From the NCBI GenBank assembly GCA_041576165.1, contig JBFGLM010000014.1, positions 7,834 through 71,833 on the forward strand: a stretch of DNA of 64,000 nt, in the 5' to 3' direction. A model generated the notes under the pieces. It was given only the letters and a program-made list of their open reading frames with translations. It made no database searches and was not told the DNA's origin. Of this stretch, positions 2,766 to 60,917 are shown piece by piece; positions within the stretch are counted from its first letter, which is position 1, and each line of letters opens with the position of its first letter. The stretch comes from Acidimicrobiia bacterium (GTDB lineage: Bacteria; Actinomycetota; Acidimicrobiia; Spongiisociales; Spongiisociaceae). The position numbers were made by a program, and so were the translations under genes.

Positions 2766-3742
2766 CAAGCGATTTGTTGCGGCTGGCGTTCGGAGGTCTC
2801 CACCCTGACCGGTTACGAGAGCTTGTAAATCGCCTTGGTCCTCGCGGGGTGGTCCGCGGCATCGAGCGGGGACGGATCGAGACCACCGATCACGTGCGAG
2901 AAGCAGTCGAGATTCCGGCCGAGCACAGGCTGGAGCAGCTCGCAGGGATGGGAATAGCATTCCTCACGGCGTCTGATCCCGGCTTCCCGTCGCATGTGCG
3001 AGGAACGGTCGGTGCCCCGTTGTTTCTCTTTGTTCAGGGGCGGCTACCGACCGAACGGGGAGTGGCAGTGGTCGGGACCCGGCGCTGTACTGCCTACGGG
3101 CGGCGGATCGCCCACTCGTACGGGCGGGCGCTGGGGAAGGTGGGAATTCCCGTCGTGAGCGGGCTGGCCCGGGGCATCGACGGCGCGGCGCACGACGGAA
3201 CGGCGTCCGCCGGCGGTACCGGAGTGGCTGTGATGGGGTGTGGCCTCGACCAGGTGTATCCACGTGAACACGAACGGCTGCTCGCATCCTTGCTGGAATA
3301 CGGGGGCGCCGCCGTCAGCGAATACCCGCCGGGCGCGAGCCCGCTGGCCTGGCGATTCCCGCCCCGCAACCGGATCATCGTCATGCTCGCCGCAGCGGTG
3401 GTGGTGGTGGAAGCGAATGTCACCGGCGGCGCCTTGATCACCGCCCACCACGCACTGATCCAAGGCCGCGAGGTCCTGGCGACCCCCGGGGACATCACGC
3501 GCCTGGCCTCGGGCGGTACCAACCGACTCATCCGAGACGGCGCCATCCCCGTGTTCGAAGCCGATGACCTGATCGGAGCGCTGGCTCTCATGCCAGACTT
3601 CGGTTGGCTGGCACATCCGACGTCTCGAGCCGGAGCCACCGAGCACACGGCTCAATGGCAACTTCGAGCGCCAACCGCCCGCCGCCGAAGCGACTCGGTG
3701 GGTCGTAGTGAGAGGCCGGTCGTTGATGACCTCGAGGACTGA
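2762..3742 (+). CDS. dprA: DNA-processing protein DprA
   Basis: ATGA overlap with comM. Rossmann-like core VAVVGTRRCTAYGRRIA...SGLARGIDGAAHDG...VVVVEA is typical of DprA/Smf. Confidence 0.9.
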   Translation: MTSDLLRLAFGGLHPDRLRELVNRLGPRGVVRGIERGRIETTDHVREAVEIPAEHRLEQLAGMGIAFLTASDPGFPSHVRGTVGAPLFLFVQGRLPTERGVAVVGTRRCTAYGRRIAHSYGRALGKVGIPVVSGLARGIDGAAHDGTASAGGTGVAVMGCGLDQVYPREHERLLASLLEYGGAAVSEYPPGASPLAWRFPPRNRIIVMLAAAVVVVEANVTGGALITAHHALIQGREVLATPGDITRLASGGTNRLIRDGAIPVFEADDLIGALALMPDFGWLAHPTSRAGATEHTAQWQLRAPTARRRSDSVGRSERPVVDDLED

Positions 3743-51111: not shown

Positions 51112-52635
51112 TCAGCGATATAGCTCAACCGCGAACGGATTGAGTCCACCCGGTCCGCCCGGTGGGTTGGAGCCGCGCAGGCTTTGAGGGAGCGCCGAAT
51201 CGGGCAGTACGAATGCCGACATCTGTTTCATGGCGTGCGCGCCGCTACACGGCGCGGGCACGCACGGTTCACCCGGGCTGTGGAAGACCCAATCGGCGCC
51301 CTTCCACGCCGTCGTCTGCAAGTAGATCGCCCGGAACCGCCGGATGTGCAGCCAGCTGCTCCCGGTACCCAGGGTCGATTCCCAGAATTCGGGGATATAT
51401 GCGAACCGGGCTGTGTTGCTTCCCAGGCTCTGGTTGAAGATCACCGCCGAGTAAGAGCCCGCCACGTACTCGTCTATGCAGACCTCCATGTGCTGCCAGG
51501 AGCGGTTTTGGTCGGGATTTCCGTCCAGGTCCCAGTCCTGCTGCCCCCCGTTGAACGTCGAGGGTGCGCAGCTGGCGGGGGCATCGTCGGCGGCCGTGGC
51601 GGTCGAGGTTCCTCCGTAGTCCGCAGCTGGCGAGATGTAGTGCCAGAGCGGACGGTCGTCCACAGCGCGGCCGAAGACGGTGGTGGTGGTGGCGCTCTGC
51701 GCCAGCCGGGGCGTGTAGCCGCCGGGAACCGGGCCAACCAAGCCCTGCTCAGCGCCGTTGCCCGGGAAACCGGTGTCGGTGTTGAGCGTGTCGACCAGCG
51801 GGTTGTAGCAGAGATCACGAACCTCGTTGGCCACCAGCCCGTCCGTATCGGGGATGATGATGTGGTCGTAGCCGTGAGCGATGTTTTGGGCGAGCACCTG
51901 GGGTGGCGGTGATGCCGAGCACTCCGGGCTGGTCGGTATCAGTGGGTTTCCGAACTTCCTGCCCTTGAGACTGCCGAAGTTCCCGGACACCGACCCGGTG
52001 CACGGGTCCTGGGCGAGCCCGGACGGGCTGGATGACAGACACAGATGACCTGAGCCGGCGCCACTGGAGATCCCGAACGGCAGGATGCCGCCTGTCCCAT
52101 TGATCGGACGCAACCGTGACACGGCAAACGCGCCGGTCGCGAGTTCGTCCACGCCGAACAAGCGTCCGAAGGTCGTATCGATCAGTTGCGTCGGCAGTCG
52201 AACCCGCAACAGGCCGCGCGCCGATTCGAAGGACAGGCACCAGTTGGCGGGATCGGTCGGAACCCAGGTCGCCGGAGCGGGGAGCGCAACGAAATTGAAG
52301 CCTCCGTCGTTGCGCTCGGACGCCTGGTCGACGCAGGACTCCCACAGGGACTGCCACTCGGCCGGGGTGTAAGTGGTCGGGAGGTTGTCCTCGACGTACG
52401 CAAGTGCTTCATCCCGCATCGCCGTTCCGCCGTTGAGTGCCGCGACCACGCCGGCCATTGCGCTCATGTCGGCTGCGGTCTGATCGGCCCTCCGCTCGTT
52501 GAACCCGGCACCGAGGTCGATCGCCAGGGCCGCGAAGCCGAGCAACAGCAGCATTGCGGCCGCCACGATGAGGGCCGACGCGCCCCGCTCCTCCCCGAGG
52601 CCCCGGGTCAGCATGTGTGGTTTCCCGTCGCCCAC
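51112..52635 (-). CDS. TadG-like pilus-assembly/pseudopilin family protein
   Basis: N-terminus RGASALIVAAAMLLLLGFAALAIDLGAGFNERRADQTAADMSAMAG is the Tad/TadG-like N-terminal domain. The large C-terminal region is not recognised. Alternative ATG start at 52614. Confidence 0.6.
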   Translation of the reverse strand: MGDGKPHMLTRGLGEERGASALIVAAAMLLLLGFAALAIDLGAGFNERRADQTAADMSAMAGVVAALNGGTAMRDEALAYVEDNLPTTYTPAEWQSLWESCVDQASERNDGGFNFVALPAPATWVPTDPANWCLSFESARGLLRVRLPTQLIDTTFGRLFGVDELATGAFAVSRLRPINGTGGILPFGISSGAGSGHLCLSSSPSGLAQDPCTGSVSGNFGSLKGRKFGNPLIPTSPECSASPPPQVLAQNIAHGYDHIIIPDTDGLVANEVRDLCYNPLVDTLNTDTGFPGNGAEQGLVGPVPGGYTPRLAQSATTTTVFGRAVDDRPLWHYISPAADYGGTSTATAADDAPASCAPSTFNGGQQDWDLDGNPDQNRSWQHMEVCIDEYVAGSYSAVIFNQSLGSNTARFAYIPEFWESTLGTGSSWLHIRRFRAIYLQTTAWKGADWVFHSPGEPCVPAPCSGAHAMKQMSAFVLPDSALPQSLRGSNPPGGPGGLNPFAVELYR

Positions 52636-53033
52636 AGAGTGGTGGGCTGTTCGATGCTCACGTTGACGGTTGAGCCGAGAGTGGCCGGCATCATCGACGT
52701 GACACCGGGGAAGCCGGTGAGCGGAGTCACGTTCACGACAACAGACACCGTGGCCCGACTGCCAACAGCACCGGGGTCTGTGAAGGAAACAACCGCTCCG
52801 GTGGTGGAGTCCATGGCGCCGCAGACGGCCGCTCCCATGCTTGCCACCGAACCCGAATTGGAGGCAGCGAGCCTGGCTGCTTCGCGGGCCCCGTGACGCA
52901 CGTCGTTTTGCTGGCTCATGAGCCAGCCGAATTCGGCGATTCCTACCAGCAAAAGAACCAATAGCGGCATGAGCAGTGCGAATTCGACGAGCGCAGCTCC
53001 TCTATCGGGCGAGTCCGGGTTGTCCATCGACAT
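52608..53033 (-). CDS. TadE-like pseudopilin
   Basis: RGAALVEFALLMPLLVLLLVGIAEFGWLMSQQNDVRHGAREAARLAA is the TadE/G-like N-terminal motif. Confidence 0.7.
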   Translation of the reverse strand: MSMDNPDSPDRGAALVEFALLMPLLVLLLVGIAEFGWLMSQQNDVRHGAREAARLAASNSGSVASMGAAVCGAMDSTTGAVVSFTDPGAVGSRATVSVVVNVTPLTGFPGVTSMMPATLGSTVNVSIEQPTTLWATGNHTC

Positions 53034-53372: not shown

Positions 53373-53384
53373 TAATTGGATACG

Positions 53385-56300
53385 ATGTCTGACGTGGCGC
53401 AGAAGAGAGCAAAGTACGCGGAGTTGCACGCCCATTCGAACTTCTCGTTTCTCGATGGGGCATCGCATCCGGAGCGGATCGTTGAGCAGGCAGTGCAACT
53501 CGGGCTCGAAGCCCTGGCCGTCACCGATCACGACGGCTTCTACGGGCTCGTCAGGTTTTGGAGCGCGGCCCGCGAGGCCGGACTCCCGGCCGTGTACGGC
53601 GCCGAGATTTCGCTCCCGCCGGGCGGGCCCGACGCCGAACGGGAGGGCCGTGACCTCCCGATCCGCGCGGCGCAGACCAAAGACGCCACCCGGCCGATCA
53701 CCAGCGCCGGCGAGTCAGATCGCTGGCGGCGGGGGCGCATCCGCCGTATGCACGGCACCAAACCCGTCGACCAGGGCTTGGTCGACCACCTGGTACTGCT
53801 GGCGCCTTCCCCCGACGGCTACGCCGAACTGTCGAAACTGATCAGCCGGGCCCAGTTCCGGGGCGAGAAGGACCGACCGATCTACCGCTGGGAGGATCTG
53901 GCCGAAGCCGCTACCAAAGGCCGGCTGGTGGCCCTCAGCGGCTGCTGGCAGGGCGCCATCCCCCGCGCCGCCCAGACCGGCGATGTGGCCGCTACCACCC
54001 GGGCCGCCACCCAGCTCAAGGACATCTTCGGCACCCGCCTCCACCTCGAGCTGTGGGACCATCTCATGCCCGAGGACGGACCGCGTAATGACCTGATGTG
54101 GGAGGTGGCGCGGCAGCTCAAGCTGCCGGTGGTGGCAACCAACAACGTCCACTACGCCGACCGTCACGACGCCGACCTGTCCGAAGTCCTCGCCGCCATC
54201 GGTGGGCGCCGCACGCTGGTGGAGCAGGATGGGTTCCGCCCGGCCACCGACGAGCGCTACCTGAAGTCACCCGAGGAGATGGCGGCCCGTTTCGCCCGCT
54301 ACCCGGGAGCAGTCGAGCGATCGGTTCATCTCGCTCGAGCTCTGACGTTCGATCTGAAGCTGGTCGCTCCCAAACTGCCGGATTTTCCGATGCCGGGTCA
54401 CTTCCAGGACGAGATGGAGTACCTGCGCCATCTCACCTTCGAAGGCGCCCTCGACGTGTATCCCGACTCGGCCGGTGGGATCGATCCCCGTGCCCGGGAC
54501 CGGCTCGAGCACGAACTGCAGATCATCGAGAACCTCGGGTTCCCCGGCTATTTCCTGGTGGTGTGGGACATCGTCAACTTCGCCCGGGACCAAGACATCT
54601 TGTGCCAGATCCGTGGGTCGGGCGCCGACTCGGCGGTGTGCCGCTGTCTGGGACTCACCCGGGTCGACCCGATCCGGCTGATGTTGCCGTTCGAGCGGTT
54701 CTTGTCAGAAGAACGCGGGCGGCCGCCCGACATCGATCTCGATCTCGAAGCCGAACGGCGCGAGGAGGTCATCCAGTACTGCTACCGCCGCTATGGGCGG
54801 GAGCGGGCCGCCATGGTGGCGAATGTGATCACCTACCGGGCCCGTTCGGTGCTGCGCGACGTCGGCAAAGCCTTCGGATTCACTCAGGCCCAGGTCGACG
54901 GCCTCTCCAAGTACGTCGACAGCCGCAACACTTCCCAGCTCCGCCTCGAGGCGCCCCTGCCGGAAGGGATGACTGCCGACTTCGTATACGACGTCTGTCA
55001 CCGGATCGATGGGTTCCCCCGCCATCTGGGGATTCATTCCGGCGGGATGGTGATCGCCGACCGGCCGCTGTGGCAGGTGGTCCCGATCGAGTGGGGCCGG
55101 ATGGAGGATCGCACCGTGCTGCAGTGGGACAAGGACGACTGCGCCGCGATCGGGATCGTCAAGTTCGACCTGCTCGGCCTCGGCATGCTCAACGCCCTCC
55201 ACCTCACGGTCGACGCCATCGAGGATGCCCACGGGGTCAAGATCGATCTGGCGACGATCCCCCAGGAGTCGGCCGTCTACGAGATGATGACCAAGGCCGA
55301 CACGGTGGGCCTGTTCCAGGTCGAGTCGCGGGCGCAGATGGCAACCCTTCCCCGGATGAAACCGAAGACCTTCTACGACCTGGCGGTCGAGGTCGCCCTC
55401 ATCCGGCCCGGTCCGATCCAGGGGGCGTCCGTCCATCCCTACCTGCGCCGGCGCAATGGCGAGGAGCCGGTTCGCTACCCCCACCCGCTCACCGAGCCAA
55501 TCCTCAAAAAGACCCTCGGGGTGCCCGTCTTCCAGGAACAACTCATGGAGCTGGCCCGACTGTGCGCCGGGTTCGACGGCGGCCAGTCCGACCGGCTGCG
55601 GGCCGCGATGACCCACAAACGCTCCGACGAAGCGATGGCCCGGCTGCGGGATGAGGTGTTCGCCGGGATGGCCTCCAACGGGGTGACCGGCGCCGCCGCC
55701 GAGGAGATCTGGGAGAAGCTGCAGGGATTCGCCAGCTTCGGCTTTCCGGAGAGCCACTCGGTCAGCTTCGCCTACATCGTGTACATGTCGGCCTGGTTGC
55801 GGTACCACTGGCCCGCCGAGTTTCTGGCGGGCCTGTTGAACGCCCAGCCGATGGGCTTCTACAGCCCCAATTCGCTGGTGCAGGATGCGATCCGCCACGG
55901 GGTGGTGGTGCTCGACCCCGACATCAACCTGTCCCGGTACGACTGCACGATCGAACATCACGACGCCGATCCCGGCGACATCGCCACCTACTACGGCATG
56001 CGGTGGCGGCGGGGGAGAGGCGCCATCGACGACCCGATCCGCACGGCGGTGGCGGTGCGGCTTGGGTTCCGATATGTGCGCAACCTGGGCGACGCCGAGG
56101 TCACCCGCATCGAGGTGGCTCGCCAGATCGGCGGGCCGTTTCGGGATCCGATCGACCTATCCCATCGGGCCGGGCTGCCGGTTGATGCGCTGGAGGGCCT
56201 GGCCGCATCAGGCGCGCTGGAGTCATTGGGTCTCGACCGTCGAGAGGGGCTGTGGGCGGCGGGCGCGCTGGCAGAGATCGGTCCCGGCCGGCTGCCGCTG

Positions 56301-56744
56301 GCGCCCGGGGCCGATGCACCGCCGCTGCCGGGGATGGATGAGCGCGCGGTCCACCAGGCTGCTCTGTGGTCGACCGGGGTGTCGGTCCGCCATCCGATCG
56401 AGTTCGCCCGAGAGCGGCTGGCCGCCCAGGGCTGCGTCACCGTGGCCGAGGCGCTGGCCGTGCTCCGCAACGGAGTCAAGGCCAAGGTGGGCGGCATTGT
56501 CACCCACCGTCAGCGGCCGGGGACCGCAGCCGGGGTGATCTTCTTCAACCTGGAGGACGAGACCGGACTGTTGAACGTCGTCGTGCTGCCCGACATCTGG
56601 TCGGCCAACAAGGAGATCGCCCGCCGCAGCGTGGGGCTGATCATCGACGGGTTGCTGGAATACCGCGACGGTGTCACCAACCTGGTGGCCCGCTCGTTTG
56701 AACCGATCGAGACCGACGAGGTGGCCACCCGTAACTTCCGATGA
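53385..56744 (+). CDS. dnaE2: error-prone DNA polymerase DnaE2 (C-family alpha-subunit paralogue)
   Basis: PHP domain YAELHAHSNFSFLDGASHPERIVEQA...LAVTDHDG. Polymerase core (GLFQVESRAQM, IRPGPIQG, ESHSVSFAYIVY). OB fold at the C-terminus. ~1119 aa, with an SOS box and imuA'-imuB in the same region. Confidence 0.9.
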   Translation: MSDVAQKRAKYAELHAHSNFSFLDGASHPERIVEQAVQLGLEALAVTDHDGFYGLVRFWSAAREAGLPAVYGAEISLPPGGPDAEREGRDLPIRAAQTKDATRPITSAGESDRWRRGRIRRMHGTKPVDQGLVDHLVLLAPSPDGYAELSKLISRAQFRGEKDRPIYRWEDLAEAATKGRLVALSGCWQGAIPRAAQTGDVAATTRAATQLKDIFGTRLHLELWDHLMPEDGPRNDLMWEVARQLKLPVVATNNVHYADRHDADLSEVLAAIGGRRTLVEQDGFRPATDERYLKSPEEMAARFARYPGAVERSVHLARALTFDLKLVAPKLPDFPMPGHFQDEMEYLRHLTFEGALDVYPDSAGGIDPRARDRLEHELQIIENLGFPGYFLVVWDIVNFARDQDILCQIRGSGADSAVCRCLGLTRVDPIRLMLPFERFLSEERGRPPDIDLDLEAERREEVIQYCYRRYGRERAAMVANVITYRARSVLRDVGKAFGFTQAQVDGLSKYVDSRNTSQLRLEAPLPEGMTADFVYDVCHRIDGFPRHLGIHSGGMVIADRPLWQVVPIEWGRMEDRTVLQWDKDDCAAIGIVKFDLLGLGMLNALHLTVDAIEDAHGVKIDLATIPQESAVYEMMTKADTVGLFQVESRAQMATLPRMKPKTFYDLAVEVALIRPGPIQGASVHPYLRRRNGEEPVRYPHPLTEPILKKTLGVPVFQEQLMELARLCAGFDGGQSDRLRAAMTHKRSDEAMARLRDEVFAGMASNGVTGAAAEEIWEKLQGFASFGFPESHSVSFAYIVYMSAWLRYHWPAEFLAGLLNAQPMGFYSPNSLVQDAIRHGVVVLDPDINLSRYDCTIEHHDADPGDIATYYGMRWRRGRGAIDDPIRTAVAVRLGFRYVRNLGDAEVTRIEVARQIGGPFRDPIDLSHRAGLPVDALEGLAASGALESLGLDRREGLWAAGALAEIGPGRLPLAPGADAPPLPGMDERAVHQAALWSTGVSVRHPIEFARERLAAQGCVTVAEALAVLRNGVKAKVGGIVTHRQRPGTAAGVIFFNLEDETGLLNVVVLPDIWSANKEIARRSVGLIIDGLLEYRDGVTNLVARSFEPIETDEVATRNFR

Positions 56745-56787
56745 ACGCGCGGCCGTGCTTGTCACTCCGACTGCCCGCCTGGGTCCT

Positions 56788-57831
56788 TCACCGCTCTGAT
56801 GTTCTTCCCGTCAGTCTGGTGTGACGCAGATAGTCATCAATCAACCTCTCGAGTTCGGCCCCGTCCGCTGCAACCCGCACGTTGATTGTCTGGAAGTACA
56901 ACGGAAGGTCCTTCAGCCGCGCCGGGTCCATCGTGTAGACGAGTGGGGCCAGGCCTTTGCCCCGCGCGTAGCCCACCTCATACATCACGTTCTCATTCAG
57001 CTGGGTGACATCGGCGATGACGGCCGTGGCGGCCTCAACCGCATCGATGAAGTTTGTGAAGATGGCGTCACTCGATGGGACCTGGTCGAGCCGTACCGGG
57101 GTCATCCGGTGCGAGATCGCCGGTTCGATTGTGGAGGCGTAGAGCTCATCGTGCTGCGTGTCGTACGGCAGGAGAACGAGACACCGGCCGACCTTGGCGG
57201 TCTGCAGCAATGCAACCACGGCGGCTGCCGCGTCGGTCGGGGTCGAGCGGATCGTTTCGCGCACCCGGCGGAGGCAAGTCTCGAGTTCGCCATCGGCGAA
57301 TTGCCGCTCAACGTGGTCGCGATACGCCCTCAGGAGTCTTTTCGACCGGCCCTTTTCAGTTGGTATCGGCAAGAGCGGGGTCCCGAGCTCGATGGCCTGT
57401 TCCCCGACCAGCTCCGTATGTGTACCGCCTGAAATCGTCACCACGATGTCGGCCTCCCGGACCATGGTGAGGCGCCGGCCCAGTGCGGTGCGGCCGGCCA
57501 ACCGGCGGACCCCGATGCCAGCGTCCTCTGTCATCCGGCGTGCCCCGTCGAGATCGGGCCGCTTCTCCAGAACGGTCCCGGGTATCCAGGCCTCGTATAC
57601 ATCCTGGAGGTCGACTCCGTGGGACTCCGCATATCGCCGGGCGCCGTCCAGAGCGGCCGAATCGGTCGAGATGACGTGCGGTCGCTTGCTGCTGTGGAGG
57701 AATCCTCCGGTCAGGATCTTCGCGTGCATTCGCGAGAGGATCTCGAAGGCCAGGGCGGAAACGAAATCTGGGGGCATCCCCTGCAGGTCAGTGCCTCCGT
57801 AGAGGCAGACTCGCGTCCTACGCATGATCAC
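56788..57831 (-). CDS. two-domain protein: N-terminal SLOG/LOG-like Rossmannoid domain + C-terminal nucleoside 2-deoxyribosyltransferase/TIR-like domain
   Basis: N-terminal half: RVCLYGG...KILTGG...EADIVVTISGGTHTELVGEQAIELGTPLLPIP (LOG/SLOG/DprA-like loops). C-terminal half: CLVLLPYD...AATAVIADVTQLNENVMYEVGYARGKGLAPLVY (NDT/TIR-like core with a conserved-position Glu). Domain calls come from motif recall only. Confidence 0.6.
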   Translation of the reverse strand: MIMRRTRVCLYGGTDLQGMPPDFVSALAFEILSRMHAKILTGGFLHSSKRPHVISTDSAALDGARRYAESHGVDLQDVYEAWIPGTVLEKRPDLDGARRMTEDAGIGVRRLAGRTALGRRLTMVREADIVVTISGGTHTELVGEQAIELGTPLLPIPTEKGRSKRLLRAYRDHVERQFADGELETCLRRVRETIRSTPTDAAAAVVALLQTAKVGRCLVLLPYDTQHDELYASTIEPAISHRMTPVRLDQVPSSDAIFTNFIDAVEAATAVIADVTQLNENVMYEVGYARGKGLAPLVYTMDPARLKDLPLYFQTINVRVAADGAELERLIDDYLRHTRLTGRTSER

Positions 57832-57918
57832 CAGTCAGCCGATTGGATGTCGCGAGCCTACGCAGTTTCGATTGTCATGGACGCGACACAGCTCGATCAC
57901 TCGCGACTGTCCGACAGC

Positions 57919-58563
57919 TCAGGCCCTGGCCCACCTGCGGCGGCGATGGGTCCCCACCGCCCAGATTCCCAATGTGTCGTGCCATGTCCGAGGCCGCCGG
58001 TGCCGGCCGTGCCCGGCAATCACGACCGGATCGTGGTCGCGCCACGGATCGAACCGTGGATTGGTGGCCCAGCGACTAGCCCACACCGCGGCCACCATCC
58101 CGGTCGAGAACCACCCGAGCAGGCACCAGGCTCCCTCCTGTCGCCAAACGATTGGATGACCGATCAGCGGGACCAGCAGCCGACCGGCGCTCTCGATATC
58201 TGCGGGGGAGACGAGCGCCGGGTCCCGAACCCGGTTGGCGTCGCCGCGGGTCGAATAGGCCCCTCCTTCTCGCAGCCCGGCGATTCGGTGCGTGACCCGG
58301 GTGCCGTTGTGGTTGCGGAACGTGATGACCGTTCCGACGCCCAGCTGCGCGCCGTCGTGAGGGGGCCCGACCACGATGTCGCCCCGTGCGATCGTCGGTG
58401 CCATCGAGTGAGAGGAGATGACCGACGCCACCCACCCGGCTACGACCGGCAAGGCGACGGCCGCTACGAGGAGGAACAGTGCCACGTGGACCACAAACAG
58501 CGACAGGAGCCCCGCGTAGAAGCGGAGCTCCTTGATCGCTTGTGACGGCGGGCGAGCGTGCAT
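57919..58563 (-). CDS. S26-family signal peptidase I, SipW/archaeal-like type
   Basis: TM segment then SSHSMAPTIARGDIVV (Ser nucleophile), VITF...VTHRI, GDANRVRDP. Sits 4 nt downstream of the exported-protein gene. Confidence 0.75.
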   Translation of the reverse strand: MHARPPSQAIKELRFYAGLLSLFVVHVALFLLVAAVALPVVAGWVASVISSHSMAPTIARGDIVVGPPHDGAQLGVGTVITFRNHNGTRVTHRIAGLREGGAYSTRGDANRVRDPALVSPADIESAGRLLVPLIGHPIVWRQEGAWCLLGWFSTGMVAAVWASRWATNPRFDPWRDHDPVVIAGHGRHRRPRTWHDTLGIWAVGTHRRRRWARA

Positions 58564-58567
58564 GTTC

Positions 58568-59155
58568 CTAGACGCTGGTCCCGTCCCAGACGAAGTCGGC
58601 TGTGACCGACTTGCCGAAGGGGTCGGCGACGATAGGCACCGTGATGTCGAATTTGACCCGGCGATACGTCCCAGCCGTCATCGGCAAATGCGTTGTAGTC
58701 GCGGCGGGAGTCAGCGTGTCGAGCGCACCCGTGAAGACCGGAGTACCCCCGACAAAGCCCGTGCAATCTCCGAACGTGTCCGACGCCGAACCGGTTGTCT
58801 CGGTGACGGTCACCAGCACGTCCTTTGCCAGATCATCGGTGTTGTCCACGAGATTGGCACCGAGGTCGGGCGTGAAGGTCGACGGACCGTTGTAGTAGAG
58901 CGTGATGCACGACGACACGATGTCGCCGGGAACGAGGTTGGTGACCGAGAACATGGGGATGTTCCCGTCGTTGTCGGTGAAGACCCCATTGGTCACCGCC
59001 ACCGAGTTGCCCGGGTTGGTCGTCTGACCGGTGAAGGCGGCGCGCGAGCCGGTGATGATGAGCAGGGACACGACCATGAGCGCGACCACAGCCGAAGCTG
59101 ACCGGGCGATACCGGCGCGTGTCGTTGTCAATTGACCTCCCAGTCCTTGACGCAT
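58568..59155 (-). CDS. TasA/camelysin-like exported protein with alternate (SipW-type) signal peptide
   Basis: AVVALMVVSLLIITGSRAAFTGQTTNPGNSVAVTNG resembles the SipW-cognate/alternate signal region (hydrophobic core, then A-x-F-T/S-x-x-x-x-N). Beta-rich ~195-aa protein adjacent to a SipW-like peptidase. Confidence 0.5.
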   Translation of the reverse strand: MRQGLGGQLTTTRAGIARSASAVVALMVVSLLIITGSRAAFTGQTTNPGNSVAVTNGVFTDNDGNIPMFSVTNLVPGDIVSSCITLYYNGPSTFTPDLGANLVDNTDDLAKDVLVTVTETTGSASDTFGDCTGFVGGTPVFTGALDTLTPAATTTHLPMTAGTYRRVKFDITVPIVADPFGKSVTADFVWDGTSV

Positions 59156-59198
59156 TGAGAGTGATATCGACTACCGAAAGTGGTTTCTTGAAAGCGAA

Positions 59199-59419
59199 TC
59201 AGCTCGGGACAGTCCGGTTGGCCACCGGATGGTCCGGCATGCACAGTTCTTCGATCGGCATCTCAAAAAGTGCCGCCAGCTTGAAGGCGAGCGGCAGGCT
59301 GGGGTCGTACCGGCCGTTCTCGATGGGTTGACCGTCTGCCGGGAAACACCGAGTGCGTCGCCAAGTCTGCTCTGACTCCATCCCCGGCCTGAGCGGAGTT
59401 CCCGGATCCGGTTCTTCAC
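59199..59419 (-). pseudogene. small XRE-family HTH regulator interrupted by a 1-nt frameshift
   Basis: VKNRIRELRSGRGWSQSRLGDALGVSRQTVN in one frame continues as (P)IENGRYDPSLPLAFKLAALFEMPIEELC in the -1 frame. The junction is at the ccc run (+ strand ggg 59325-59327). The intact reading would be ...SRQTVNxIENGRYDPS..., a well-known ~70-aa HTH family. Confidence 0.5.
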
Positions 59420-59797
59420 AGCGTTCGCCGCGAGGCCAGGGCGCTCCCCACCAGCCAGGCCAGCATGCCGTTTGCGCAGATGATCCATGGCCGGACCCGT
59501 CGGCCTCGAGCCCGGCCAGCGCCAGGAATCCGAACGTGATGGCGGTGATCATCGCGACGCCAAGACCCGTCGCCATGCCGCTGAGCTGGATTTGGCGCTG
59601 CAGCTCGTCCACCCGCTGGAGGTGGCGCACGATCGCCAGACAACCCCACATCGCCGGGATCAGCGGGGCCAGCGCAACGCCGAGCTTCCAGCGCCACCGG
59701 TGTCAAAGTCAACCAGCACGAAGATGGTGGCCAGGACCGCGGCATATCCGATCACGGCTGGCAGGAACTCGCGGAGGTACGTCTGACCGGTCTGCAC
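59416..59797 (-). pseudogene. four-TM small membrane protein, apparently split by two frameshifts; GTGA-coupled to the HTH gene
   Basis: The pieces VQTGQTYLREFLPAVIGYAAVLATIFVLVDFDT / RWKLGVALAPLIPAMWGCLAIVRHLQRVDELQRQIQLSGMATGLGVAMITAITFGFLALAGLEADG / RPWIICANGMLAWLVGSALASRRTL lie in three different frames but read as one coherent membrane protein. The last stop overlaps the HTH GTG start (GTGA). Confidence 0.35.
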
Positions 59798-59888
59798 CTC
59801 GAAGGTTCACGACGCGAATGTAAACCTCGTTTCTTTCCATTATGTCAAGGATGCTTTCCAGCAGTAACGGCGCTCTAGGGTGCGGGCG

Positions 59889-60917
59889 ATGTTCGACCAT
59901 CCCGAGTACGACGGTCACGAGTCGGTCACCTACGTATCCGAGCGGGCATCCGGACTCCACGCCATCATCGCCATCCATTCGACGGTGTTGGGGCCGGCTG
60001 GCGGAGGGGTGCGCATGTTCGATTACGAGCGCACTGACCTCGCCCTCACCGACGCGCTCCGGCTCTCGAAAGGCATGACCTACAAAGCGGCAATGAGCGA
60101 CTTGCCCTTCGGCGGCGGCAAGGCGGTTGTCATCGGCGACCCGGCCAGAAAGACCGATCGCCAGTTTGAGGCGTTGGGCGATGCGATCGAGGCACTCGGC
60201 GGCAGGTACTTCTGTGGAGAAGATGTCGGGACGACCCCAGACGACATGGCAGTCATACATCGCCGCACCTCGTACGTGGTGGGTCTCCCGGGCAAGACAG
60301 GCGACCCGTCTCCGGCGACGGCGGAGGGGGTCTACGTGTCGATCCTGGCCGCGGTGGCCCATGTATTCGGCAGCAGCGACCTCCGCAATCGACATGTGGC
60401 CGTCCAGGGCCTGGGCAACGTGGGTGCCCGCCTGGTTGAATTGCTGGCCGGAGCTGGTGCCCGGCTCACGGTCGCCGATCTCGATACCAGCAAAGTCGAC
60501 AGAGCCCGGGCGCGTTTTGGCGCGGCGGCAGCGGCGCCGGAAGCGATCCACAAGGTGGCGGCAGCTGTGTTCAGCCCATGTGCATTGGGGGCGGTGGTCA
60601 ACGACTCGACCGTTGACGAGATCGGCGCCCGCATCATCTGCGGCAGTGCCAACAACCAGCTGGCGACCCCTCAGCACGGCCGGCTGCTGCACGAACGCGG
60701 GGTTGTATATGTGCCGGACTACGTGGCGAGCGTCGGTGGAGCGATCTCGGCGATGCGGGAGCGAATCGATTACGTCGAGGGCGAGTACAAACGCCGTATC
60801 GCCGGAGTAGGCGAGCGGGTCAGGCAGCTGCTCGAGCGATCAGTGACTGCCGGCGAACCTCCTGCGCAGGCGGCTGATGCGATCGCCCGTTCGATCGTGG
60901 AAGCCGCCCACGGCTGA
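59889..60917 (+). CDS. Leu/Val/Phe dehydrogenase (Glu/Leu/Phe/Val dehydrogenase family)
   Basis: HAIIAIHSTVLGPAGGGVRMFDY...LSKGMTYKAAMSDLPFGGGKAVVIGDP (catalytic Lys), NAD site VQGLGNVGARLVELL. Alternative GTG start at 59880. Confidence 0.85.
   Translation: MFDHPEYDGHESVTYVSERASGLHAIIAIHSTVLGPAGGGVRMFDYERTDLALTDALRLSKGMTYKAAMSDLPFGGGKAVVIGDPARKTDRQFEALGDAIEALGGRYFCGEDVGTTPDDMAVIHRRTSYVVGLPGKTGDPSPATAEGVYVSILAAVAHVFGSSDLRNRHVAVQGLGNVGARLVELLAGAGARLTVADLDTSKVDRARARFGAAAAAPEAIHKVAAAVFSPCALGAVVNDSTVDEIGARIICGSANNQLATPQHGRLLHERGVVYVPDYVASVGGAISAMRERIDYVEGEYKRRIAGVGERVRQLLERSVTAGEPPAQAADAIARSIVEAAHG

Follow-up and report, generated by a model that had tools for sequence, protein, structure and literature searches.

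What would a bacterium do with a single gene whose product looks like both the sensor and the enzyme of an immune signalling pathway, when no gene for the expected signal maker lies beside it? The question is raised by a gene on the minus strand at positions 56788-57831 of a stretch of 64,000 nucleotides, called the window here, from an Acidimicrobiia bacterium (GenBank assembly GCA_041576165.1, contig JBFGLM010000014.1). The predicted protein joins an N-terminal SLOG domain to a C-terminal domain of the nucleoside 2-deoxyribosyltransferase (NDT) fold and is referred to below as the SLOG-NDT protein. An earlier note, made from the letters of the window alone, had read it as a sensor-like and an effector-like module in one polypeptide. 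The answer that we favour, with a probability of roughly 0.55, is that the protein is a signal-activated effector of a Thoeris-like TIR-signalling system, in which a SLOG sensor would govern an NDT-fold N-glycosidase acting through Glu285, and that it stands as an orphan in a small insertion.

The open reading frame (ORF) list gives a product of 347 aa that begins at a GTG at 57831. An identical database protein (P0001) has 345 aa; its first codon is the ATG at 57825, two codons downstream, and this ATG is the likelier true start. The gene is convergent with dnaE2 (53376-56744, plus strand), the arrangement that the earlier note had described for the 347-aa frame, and 43 bp separate the two stops. 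At E ≤ 1e-3 the window protein has 318 homologues, and the best 120 of these 318 are nearly all full-length, with ~340-370 aa, 54-62% identity, and E-values down to 1e-133. Because of these homologues and full-length matches, the stretch at 56788-57831 is judged to be a real, intact gene and not a chance frame of GC-rich sequence; the plus-strand ORFs that overlap it are its shadows. A profile search of 1.8 billion representatives gave 5265 matches at E ≤ 1e-3, and most of the 327 clusters matched at E ≤ 1e-10 share the same two-domain length. The composition of the gene (GC 0.636, GC at third codon positions 0.776, against a window average of 0.651) is not clearly foreign, and a scan for promoters and terminators around it was uninformative.

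An AlphaFold2 model of the whole protein, built from a 30-sequence alignment, is made up of two confidently predicted domains (pLDDT 84.4, pTM 0.81). Residues ~4-160 (57352-57822, minus strand) form a LOG-like Rossmannoid domain of the SLOG superfamily, assigned through Foldseek, profile searches, and Pfam matches in relatives. Its conserved loops are YGGT (residues 11-14), GGF (42-44), RR (119-120), and TISGxxHTE (132-140). When the whole model is used as the query, with the N-terminal half dominating, the top SLOG-superfamily structures found by Foldseek (E 2e-6 to 2e-4) are those of LOG (2a33/5zbk), a molybdenum cofactor carrier (6y01), TRPM2 MHR1/2 (8sr9), PpnN (6gfm), and TM1055 (1rcu). 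A profile of 67 diverse family members, searched against the Protein Data Bank (PDB), reaches 1rcu with its N-terminal half at E 4.6e-5 and, weakly, the SLOG domain of BcThsA (7uxs/7uxt/8bto). Among these 67 relatives, Pfam recognises LDcluster4 ('SLOG cluster4') in 39 (best 4e-11), STALD, the SLOG type of ThsA, in 10, and, weakly, Cap17-like_N in two, while the LOG family itself (PF03641, Lysine_decarbox) matches neither the window protein nor any of the 67. The earlier note had placed this half in the SLOG/LOG superfamily, which the fold matches and the LDcluster4 and STALD hits in relatives bear out, and the domain is predicted to be a nucleotide-signal binding module.

In the pocket of the SLOG half, the family conserves R119/R120, T139, and G135, and of the LOG motif PGGxGTxxE, G135 and T139 are retained. 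In the alignment to 1rcu, the position three residues after the Thr is taken by V142, and a Val at the place of the LOG catalytic Glu would favour binding over LOG-type catalysis, in a register that is not secure and is made ambiguous by E140 and E144 nearby. The domain is followed by a helical linker, residues ~161-212 (57196-57351, minus strand), in which DSSP applied to the AlphaFold2 model assigns helices at 163-169, 171-176, 182-193, and 198-209, all with pLDDT of 86-97.

The C-terminal half, residues 213-341 (56809-57195, minus strand), is predicted to have the fold shared by NDT, DNPH1, and CMP hydrolases, a group also termed 'DrHyd'. Modelled separately it reaches a pLDDT of 84.4, and Foldseek pairs this model with NDT (7o62), DNPH1 (8rpt/8rps), and MilB (4ohb) at TM scores of 0.6-0.75 and E-values of 5e-5 to 1e-3. 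The diverse 67-member profile reaches rat Rcl (2klh, E 4e-7) with this half, along with human DNPH1 and NDT chains, whereas profiles of the close subfamily (A1 and A2) reached no NDT or LOG chains in the PDB. The Pfam NDT family PF05014 is found in 42 of the 67 relatives at E ≤ 0.01, and phrog_3634 matches the half at E 1e-12. The NDT-like character that had been read from the letters thus agrees with the matches to NDT, DNPH1, and MilB structures. In the same fold search with the C-terminal domain, the TIR structure of TRAM stands at rank 24, and the Pfam TIR families PF13676 and PF01582 do not match the window protein itself.

Glu285 (codon 56977-56979, minus strand), the predicted catalytic nucleophile of this half, lies in the motif NVMYEVG. 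Across the 67 diverse members, which are 19-51% identical, the invariant positions are G12, G43, G135, C217, Y284, E285, G287, and P310. Alignments to PDB chains (2klh, 4fyh, 8rpt) place the family motif 'NVmYElG' on 'GVGYELG' of Rcl/DNPH1, and because of this register Glu285 is predicted to be the counterpart of the nucleophile with which those enzymes form a glycosyl-enzyme intermediate. When the C-terminal domain was aligned with hhalign to approximate DNPH1 and NDT sequences, the expected register was found at low probability, with the Glu of the NDT motif 'GMELGYA' level with Glu285; this alignment serves as a lead only. The motifs cited by the earlier note are all present on translation (VCLYGGT, TISGGTHTE, and CLVLLPYD...NENVMYEVGYA). 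Its proposal of a Glu at the NDT nucleophile position gains from the invariance of E285 and from the Rcl/DNPH1 alignment, and the loss of this Glu among homologues, which would have spoken against the idea, is not seen.

What the protein would respond to is suggested by its neighbours in other genomes. The gene was followed through ~36 unique loci with a full-length copy (given L numbers here), three of them checked by precomputed Pfam lists only, and TIR genes were detected with a locally iterated TIR hidden Markov model (HMM) and a Pfam scan of the flanking ORFs. In the Pfam scan of 99 nearest-neighbour ORFs from 26 loci, TIR_2 was found in 10 ORFs (best E 1e-22) and any other family in at most two. 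The TIR HMM identified 23 TIR ORFs spread over 13 of the ~36 loci, many of which hold two to six copies, and no separate TIR gene in the loci of 17 relatives with the C-terminal domain only, in two dnaE2 control loci, or in the window, where no TIR domain occurs in any frame of the 64 kb. An all-vs-all BLAST of flanking ORFs from 27 loci detected no conserved partner, the TIR genes having diverged too far to be picked up in this way. The closest arrangements resemble operons. A 289-aa TIR gene lies 23 bp upstream of the family gene on the same strand in L053/L054, and L008 reads TIR-TIR-gene-TIR on one strand throughout. In Nocardioides ganghwensis (L017), two TIR genes lie upstream in divergent orientation. 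Inspected by eye, most neighbour TIRs keep a Glu at the usual catalytic position. Comparison with published TIRs (types I-IV, VIII, and '4TM SLOG') gives weak matches, the best being 5.5e-9 to type III TIR4, and assigns no type.

Because TIR genes adjoin the family gene in 13 of the ~36 loci, the family has the appearance of the effector in a Thoeris-like two-component system, where a TIR protein makes the signal and an effector is activated by it, and not of an obligatory single-gene module. The earlier statement that the protein has no recognisable partner stands for the window, with its 64 kb free of TIR genes, and falls for the family as a whole. The window copy itself is best read as an orphan effector, there being no TIR gene in the 64 kb and this protein being the most divergent of its subfamily. 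The sensor half also occurs in fusions where TIR_2 (P0178, P0191, P0195) or EAD11 (P0270) replaces the NDT-fold half, and such swapping is a pattern typical of sensor-effector immune proteins. Other defence genes near family members include a SIR2-NACHT-HEAT gene and a DUF4062/NIR gene (L051), and PADLOC models for ThsB and for MADS, Mokosh, and Lamassu components match near them. One contig of a Terriglobia metagenome-assembled genome (MAG) is an unusually dense TIR island, with six TIR ORFs, a 223-aa NDT-fold-only protein (2961-3638), and a full-length gene within 20 kb (L026, 1-19245).

The insertion that holds the gene is defined by synteny with the closest relative. In blastn comparison with that relative's locus (L048), the dnaE2 match stops at window position 56744 and a match to an ELFV dehydrogenase gene restarts at 59889, leaving 3.1 kb of the window (56745-59888, no strand) without a counterpart there. 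The homologues of dnaE2 point to an Acidimicrobiia-like actinobacterium. In L048, just 22 bp separate dnaE2 from the ELFV dehydrogenase gene, and DUF5995 comes next. The SLOG-NDT gene is accessory here, carried in the insertion, and is not the strictly syntenic core gene that would have told against a defence role. Between the window and this relative, dnaE2 has a DNA identity of 80% and a protein identity of 89%, and the best homologue of the SLOG-NDT protein is only 62% identical to it while the neighbouring dnaE2 has relatives at 89%.

A pattern scan of GTDB contigs, with one genome per species, found full-length copies of 43-60% identity in ~26 species of Acidobacteriota, Gamma-, Beta-, and Alphaproteobacteria, Verrucomicrobiota, Bacteroidota, and Actinomycetota, a patchy distribution that suggests horizontal transfer; the family as a whole reaches at least six phyla. 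No full-length member was found in IMG/VR, phage records, or BFVD, and on plasmids the only relative found was a frameshifted one on a Rhizobium plasmid. For the three closest relatives of the window protein, the gene stands alone, with transposase genes or a ParA gene in its vicinity. Broken copies in two or three frames occur in a Flavisolibacter MAG (L028, 2284-3416) and on the Rhizobium leguminosarum plasmid (L050, 6613-7738), where the copy adjoins IS66 and transposase genes; the family gene is sometimes decaying elsewhere.

From these parts we infer a ligand, a substrate, an activation mechanism, and an anti-phage role for the family, read as effectors of the Thoeris/CBASS type, as follows. 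The LOG-like SLOG domain would bind a phosphoribosyl nucleotide signal, most likely a TIR-made molecule derived from ADP-ribose, and binding would alter the oligomeric or conformational state of the protein through the helical linker. The C-terminal domain would then cleave the N-glycosidic bond of an abundant nucleotide with Glu285. The most likely substrate would be NAD+, with (d)NMP or NTP as alternatives, and depletion of that nucleotide would halt phage replication. In the window, the gene would have arrived, or been left, alone in the 3.1-kb insertion, and the orphan effector would either answer a signal from an unlinked gene or be a stranded, possibly decaying remnant.

Several results weigh against this account of the protein as a Thoeris-like effector. 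A Pfam scan of the window protein alone finds no SLOG family, and PF05014 scores 25.6 bits on it, under the gathering cut-off of 28.8, so that the assignment of both halves rests on structure prediction and on relatives; a single-sequence search of the protein found nothing among PDB sequences or in NCBIfam. The chemistry of DNPH1 is also incompletely conserved, as the profile alignment puts an invariant Phe261 where DNPH1 and NDT have their general-acid Asp (D80 and D72, respectively), while conservation of D263, two residues further on, is limited to the close subfamily. By analogy, an active site with a Glu and no such Asp recalls the TIR and DUF4062/NIR NADases, and it is because of this resemblance that NAD+ is tentatively ranked above dNMPs as the substrate; DUF4062, itself an NDT-like domain, is a NADase that depends on its Glu (10.64898/2026.09.04.749371). 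The neighbourhood is uneven as well. No TIR gene was found in the examined flanks of 23 of the ~36 loci, including the window and its three closest relatives, and loss of the signal maker is expected to be rare in a two-gene system. Some TIR neighbours are TIR-WD40 proteins (L004, L018, L026) or a TIR-NACHT protein (L023), which may be independent defence genes and not partners. Finally, the window protein is the most divergent member of its subfamily, with a mean identity of 57% against 71% among the others, and of the 166 columns with ≥90% conservation in the subfamily it departs at 18 (median 4), with D162R and H290R among the changes. From these deviations, the window copy could be decaying.

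The same uneven neighbourhood feeds the alternative that fares best, which we think possible and yet rather unlikely. Under this explanation, which is also that of the earlier note, the protein is a self-sufficient sensor and effector encoded by one gene. Its SLOG domain would directly detect a nucleotide that is made by the phage or induced by infection, or would eavesdrop on unlinked TIR or cyclase signals, with no dedicated partner; the proximity of TIR genes would then reflect mere sharing of defence islands. Consistent with it, ~64% of the loci are solitary, no neighbour was conserved in the 27-locus BLAST, and several of the neighbouring TIR proteins are large and NLR-like and could function by themselves. 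Set against it, at least 10 loci have a TIR gene as the immediate neighbour, in many cases co-oriented with the family gene and of a short ThsB-like form, a frequency far above that of other families, and the characterised SLOG effectors that were checked respond to a dedicated TIR signal (10.64898/2025.12.03.692087). A narrower form, which we consider doubtful, applies to the solitary proteins that make up most loci. These would be self-contained immune sensors of a phage-derived or infection-induced nucleotide, or of unlinked TIR signals, that deplete NAD+ or a nucleotide pool.

It is improbable that the protein is instead a signal-processing enzyme that degrades or converts TIR-made ADP-ribose signals, for example at the N-glycosidic link of cyclic ADP-ribose (cADPR), as an off-switch or converter in which both domains may be catalytic. 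The idea draws on the fact that the LOG-like SLOG domain and the NDT fold are both N-glycosidase scaffolds, and on the conserved SLOG pocket residues listed above. In addition, ADP-ribosyl cyclases have been placed in the same DrHyd superfamily, and SLOG domains have been proposed to degrade signals of the cADPR type (PMC9503650). The minimal operons, one TIR gene with the family gene in L053 and three in L008, nevertheless hold no other recognisable candidate effector. The swapping of the N-terminal domain onto TIR_2 and EAD11 is sensor-like, and the LOG catalytic Glu is not clearly retained, with V142 at its place relative to 1rcu.

A purely metabolic role, as a salvage enzyme for nucleosides or nucleotides or as a fusion of a LOG-type phosphoribohydrolase with no part in conflict, is highly improbable. 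Both halves do resemble housekeeping folds (LOG and DNPH1/NDT), but neither PF03641 nor NCBIfam matches, the gene is missing from the same locus of the closest relative and is patchily distributed, and its surroundings in the family include defence genes but no conserved metabolic ones. The earlier note had named a whole-length match to a housekeeping LOG enzyme as evidence against its view, and none was found. That the protein is a toxin carried by an extracellular contractile injection system (eCIS) is scarcely credible, as two independent loci of the ~36 lie beside eCIS clusters (L055/L056 and L051) but the window has no eCIS genes, and a regulated sensor-plus-enzyme architecture with adjacent TIR genes fits intracellular immunity better. 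In the first of those clusters (L055/L056, 1-11044), eCIS_core, CIS_TMP, an AAA ATPase, and UDG precede the family gene at the 3' end; in the second (L051, 3386-14429), it is situated upstream of genes for the sheath, gp19 tube, baseplate, and Pvc16_N. The family members at the two sites are unrelated, and the adjacency could be coincidence or a hint of cargo.

The reading as a Thoeris-like effector can also be set beside the systems that already have names. In type I Thoeris, the SLOG domain of ThsA senses TIR-made 3'cADPR; type III has several TIR genes and an effector that contains SLOG; in type VIII, canonical cADPR activates the effector ThsI, described as 'CMP hydrolase + TPR'; type IX has a 'TIR and SLOG' effector; and 'SLOG-patatin' and 'SLOG-4TM' proteins are predicted effectors (10.64898/2025.12.03.692087). 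The modelled window protein, with its predicted sensor and predicted enzyme, would fit the architecture of a Thoeris effector, in which a signal-binding domain is joined to a toxic or depleting one. A label of the kind 'SLOG + CMP hydrolase/NDT' was not found in the text of that Thoeris survey and those of its supplements that were examined (10.64898/2025.12.03.692087). The earlier claim that the architecture belongs to no named defence system holds in so far as the exact combination was not found among the named Thoeris types, and fails in so far as both modules occur in named Thoeris effectors (10.64898/2025.12.03.692087) and a single PADLOC model, PDLC00733, matches both halves. This model of a CBASS effector, labelled 'TIR', matches the window protein at E 2e-6, with residues 123-305 colinear with profile positions 140-341 of 388 across both halves, and it matches 50 of the 67 relatives (best 2.4e-18). 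The LDcluster4 domain and its fusions are reportedly treated, probably, by Burroughs et al. 2015 (NAR) and by Burroughs and Aravind 2020 (J Bacteriol), and the SLOG-NDT fusion may already have been catalogued computationally.

Among the individual effectors, ThsJ of type IX is alike in fusing an N-glycosidase-type domain of the TIR/DrHyd/SLOG class to a SLOG domain and in being encoded beside ThsB-like TIR genes. The profile of the window N-terminal domain also matches the SLOG+TIR_2 proteins P0178, P0191, and P0195 at E 1e-35 to 1e-39. The enzymatic half of the window protein differs in having the NDT/DNPH1 fold without a Pfam TIR match and in lacking a TIR neighbour, a comparison in which ThsJ is taken by its description only. 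ThsI of type VIII has the same CMP-hydrolase/NDT fold in its effector domain but a TPR-S sensor where the window protein, which has no TPR, has SLOG. In L018 (11157-16235), a SLOG-NDT gene, a convergent gene for a 957-aa TIR-WD40 protein, and one for a 688-aa protein that matches the family's C-terminal domain and carries TPR-S stand side by side, and the 688-aa protein resembles published ThsI. ThsA of type I similarly places a SLOG switch on a nucleotide-depleting enzyme, and the weak profile matches to 7uxs/7uxt/8bto, together with STALD and ThsA model matches in some relatives, reflect this likeness. The window protein differs from it in lacking SIR2, in carrying a LOG-like LDcluster4 SLOG and not STALD, and in the reversed domain order, with the sensor N-terminal.

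Outside Thoeris, Cap17 of CBASS is a fusion of SLOG (TPALS) and PNP, an ATP nucleosidase that cleaves the N-glycosidic bonds of ATP and dATP (10.1101/2023.01.24.525353). Cap17, with its Cap17-like_N/TPALS SLOG, and the protein behind PDLC00733 share with the window protein an N-terminal SLOG sensor and a C-terminal N-glycosidase. The recurrent neighbours of the present family are TIR genes, however, and no CD-NTase is found among the top 25 neighbour families or the annotated neighbours. DNPH1/Rcl, MilB, and NDT are alike in the fold of the C-terminal domain and in the nucleophile Glu in its 'YE(L/V)G' context; they differ from the family in that DNPH1 D80 is replaced by an invariant Phe, in the SLOG fusion, and in the accessory, defence-linked setting as opposed to a housekeeping one. 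The DUF4062/NIR domains of Avs and other defence proteins likewise have an NDT/CMP-hydrolase-like fold and a Glu-dependent NADase effector activity (10.64898/2026.09.04.749371), but the sequence families are distinct and no DUF4062 Pfam match occurs in the window protein or its relatives.

The type III Thoeris effector was considered as a counterpart and set aside. Two proteins encoded at type III-like plasmid loci, one SLOG-like and of 189 aa, the other SLOG-like/patatin, and neither of them ThsD itself, gave no match to the family HMM at E ≤ 10; TIRs at these loci are 62-65% identical to published type III TIR4. One of these loci lies on the Klebsiella variicola plasmid pKLVA-1 (L065, 3672-9159) and is made up of four TIR genes, a 538-aa 'CBASS cGAMP-activated phospholipase' with an N-terminus that is SLOG-like by eye, and the 189-aa SLOG-like hypothetical protein, with a TIR 62% identical to type III TIR4. 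The RefSeq name 'CBASS' of the patatin protein may mislead, because no cyclase is annotated nearby.

The rest of the 3.1-kb insertion is encoded on the minus strand together with the SLOG-NDT gene and consists of a split helix-turn-helix (HTH) pseudogene, a 195-aa secreted-looking protein, and a SipW-type signal peptidase. The SipW/archaeal-type signal peptidase I gene (57919-58563, minus strand) is identified by a TIGR02228 match of 66 bits against a cut-off of 51.9. The gene for the 195-aa protein (58568-59155, minus strand) lies 4 bp upstream of it, and its product has a hydrophobic, signal-like stretch at the N-terminus and matches no family. The two have the appearance of a peptidase-plus-substrate (TasA-like) pair and in other genomes are unconnected with the SLOG-NDT gene. 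A frameshifted XRE-type HTH gene at the insertion's edge (59171-59651, minus strand) is recognised by HTH_3 halves in two overlapping frames, positions 1-27 of the family corresponding to residues 28-54 of one ORF and positions 29-55 to residues 110-136 of the other, and it has a weak HipB/Y4mF antitoxin-like match. The insertion and this split gene give substance to the earlier description of a variable stretch with pseudogenes. On the other side of dnaE2 lies a second stretch without a counterpart in L048 (45673-53356, ~7.7 kb, where L048 has 208 bp), with Tad/Flp-pilus TadE/G-like genes at 51112-52635 and 52608-53033, so dnaE2 has variable regions on both flanks.

For the window itself the result is modest, an orphan and possibly decaying effector in a 3.1-kb insertion. 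The broader interest lies with the family, which occurs widely among soil Acidobacteriota, Bacteroidota, Proteobacteria, and Actinomycetota, groups that are under-sampled in experimental defence work. Given the many solitary copies, one may ask whether such effectors can function when no signal maker is linked to them; if they do so as self-contained sensors, the solitary SLOG-NDT proteins would be a signal-synthase-independent branch of nucleotide-sensing immunity. The family also poses the questions of which ADP-ribose-derived signal fits this clade of SLOG domains, and of whether the enzyme would deplete NAD+, as the DUF4062/NIR domain does, or the (d)NMP pool, as DNPH1 does. If the Thoeris-like reading is correct, the family would add an effector type to TIR-based immunity, one in which a LOG-like SLOG sensor drives an N-glycosidase of the NDT/DNPH1 fold.

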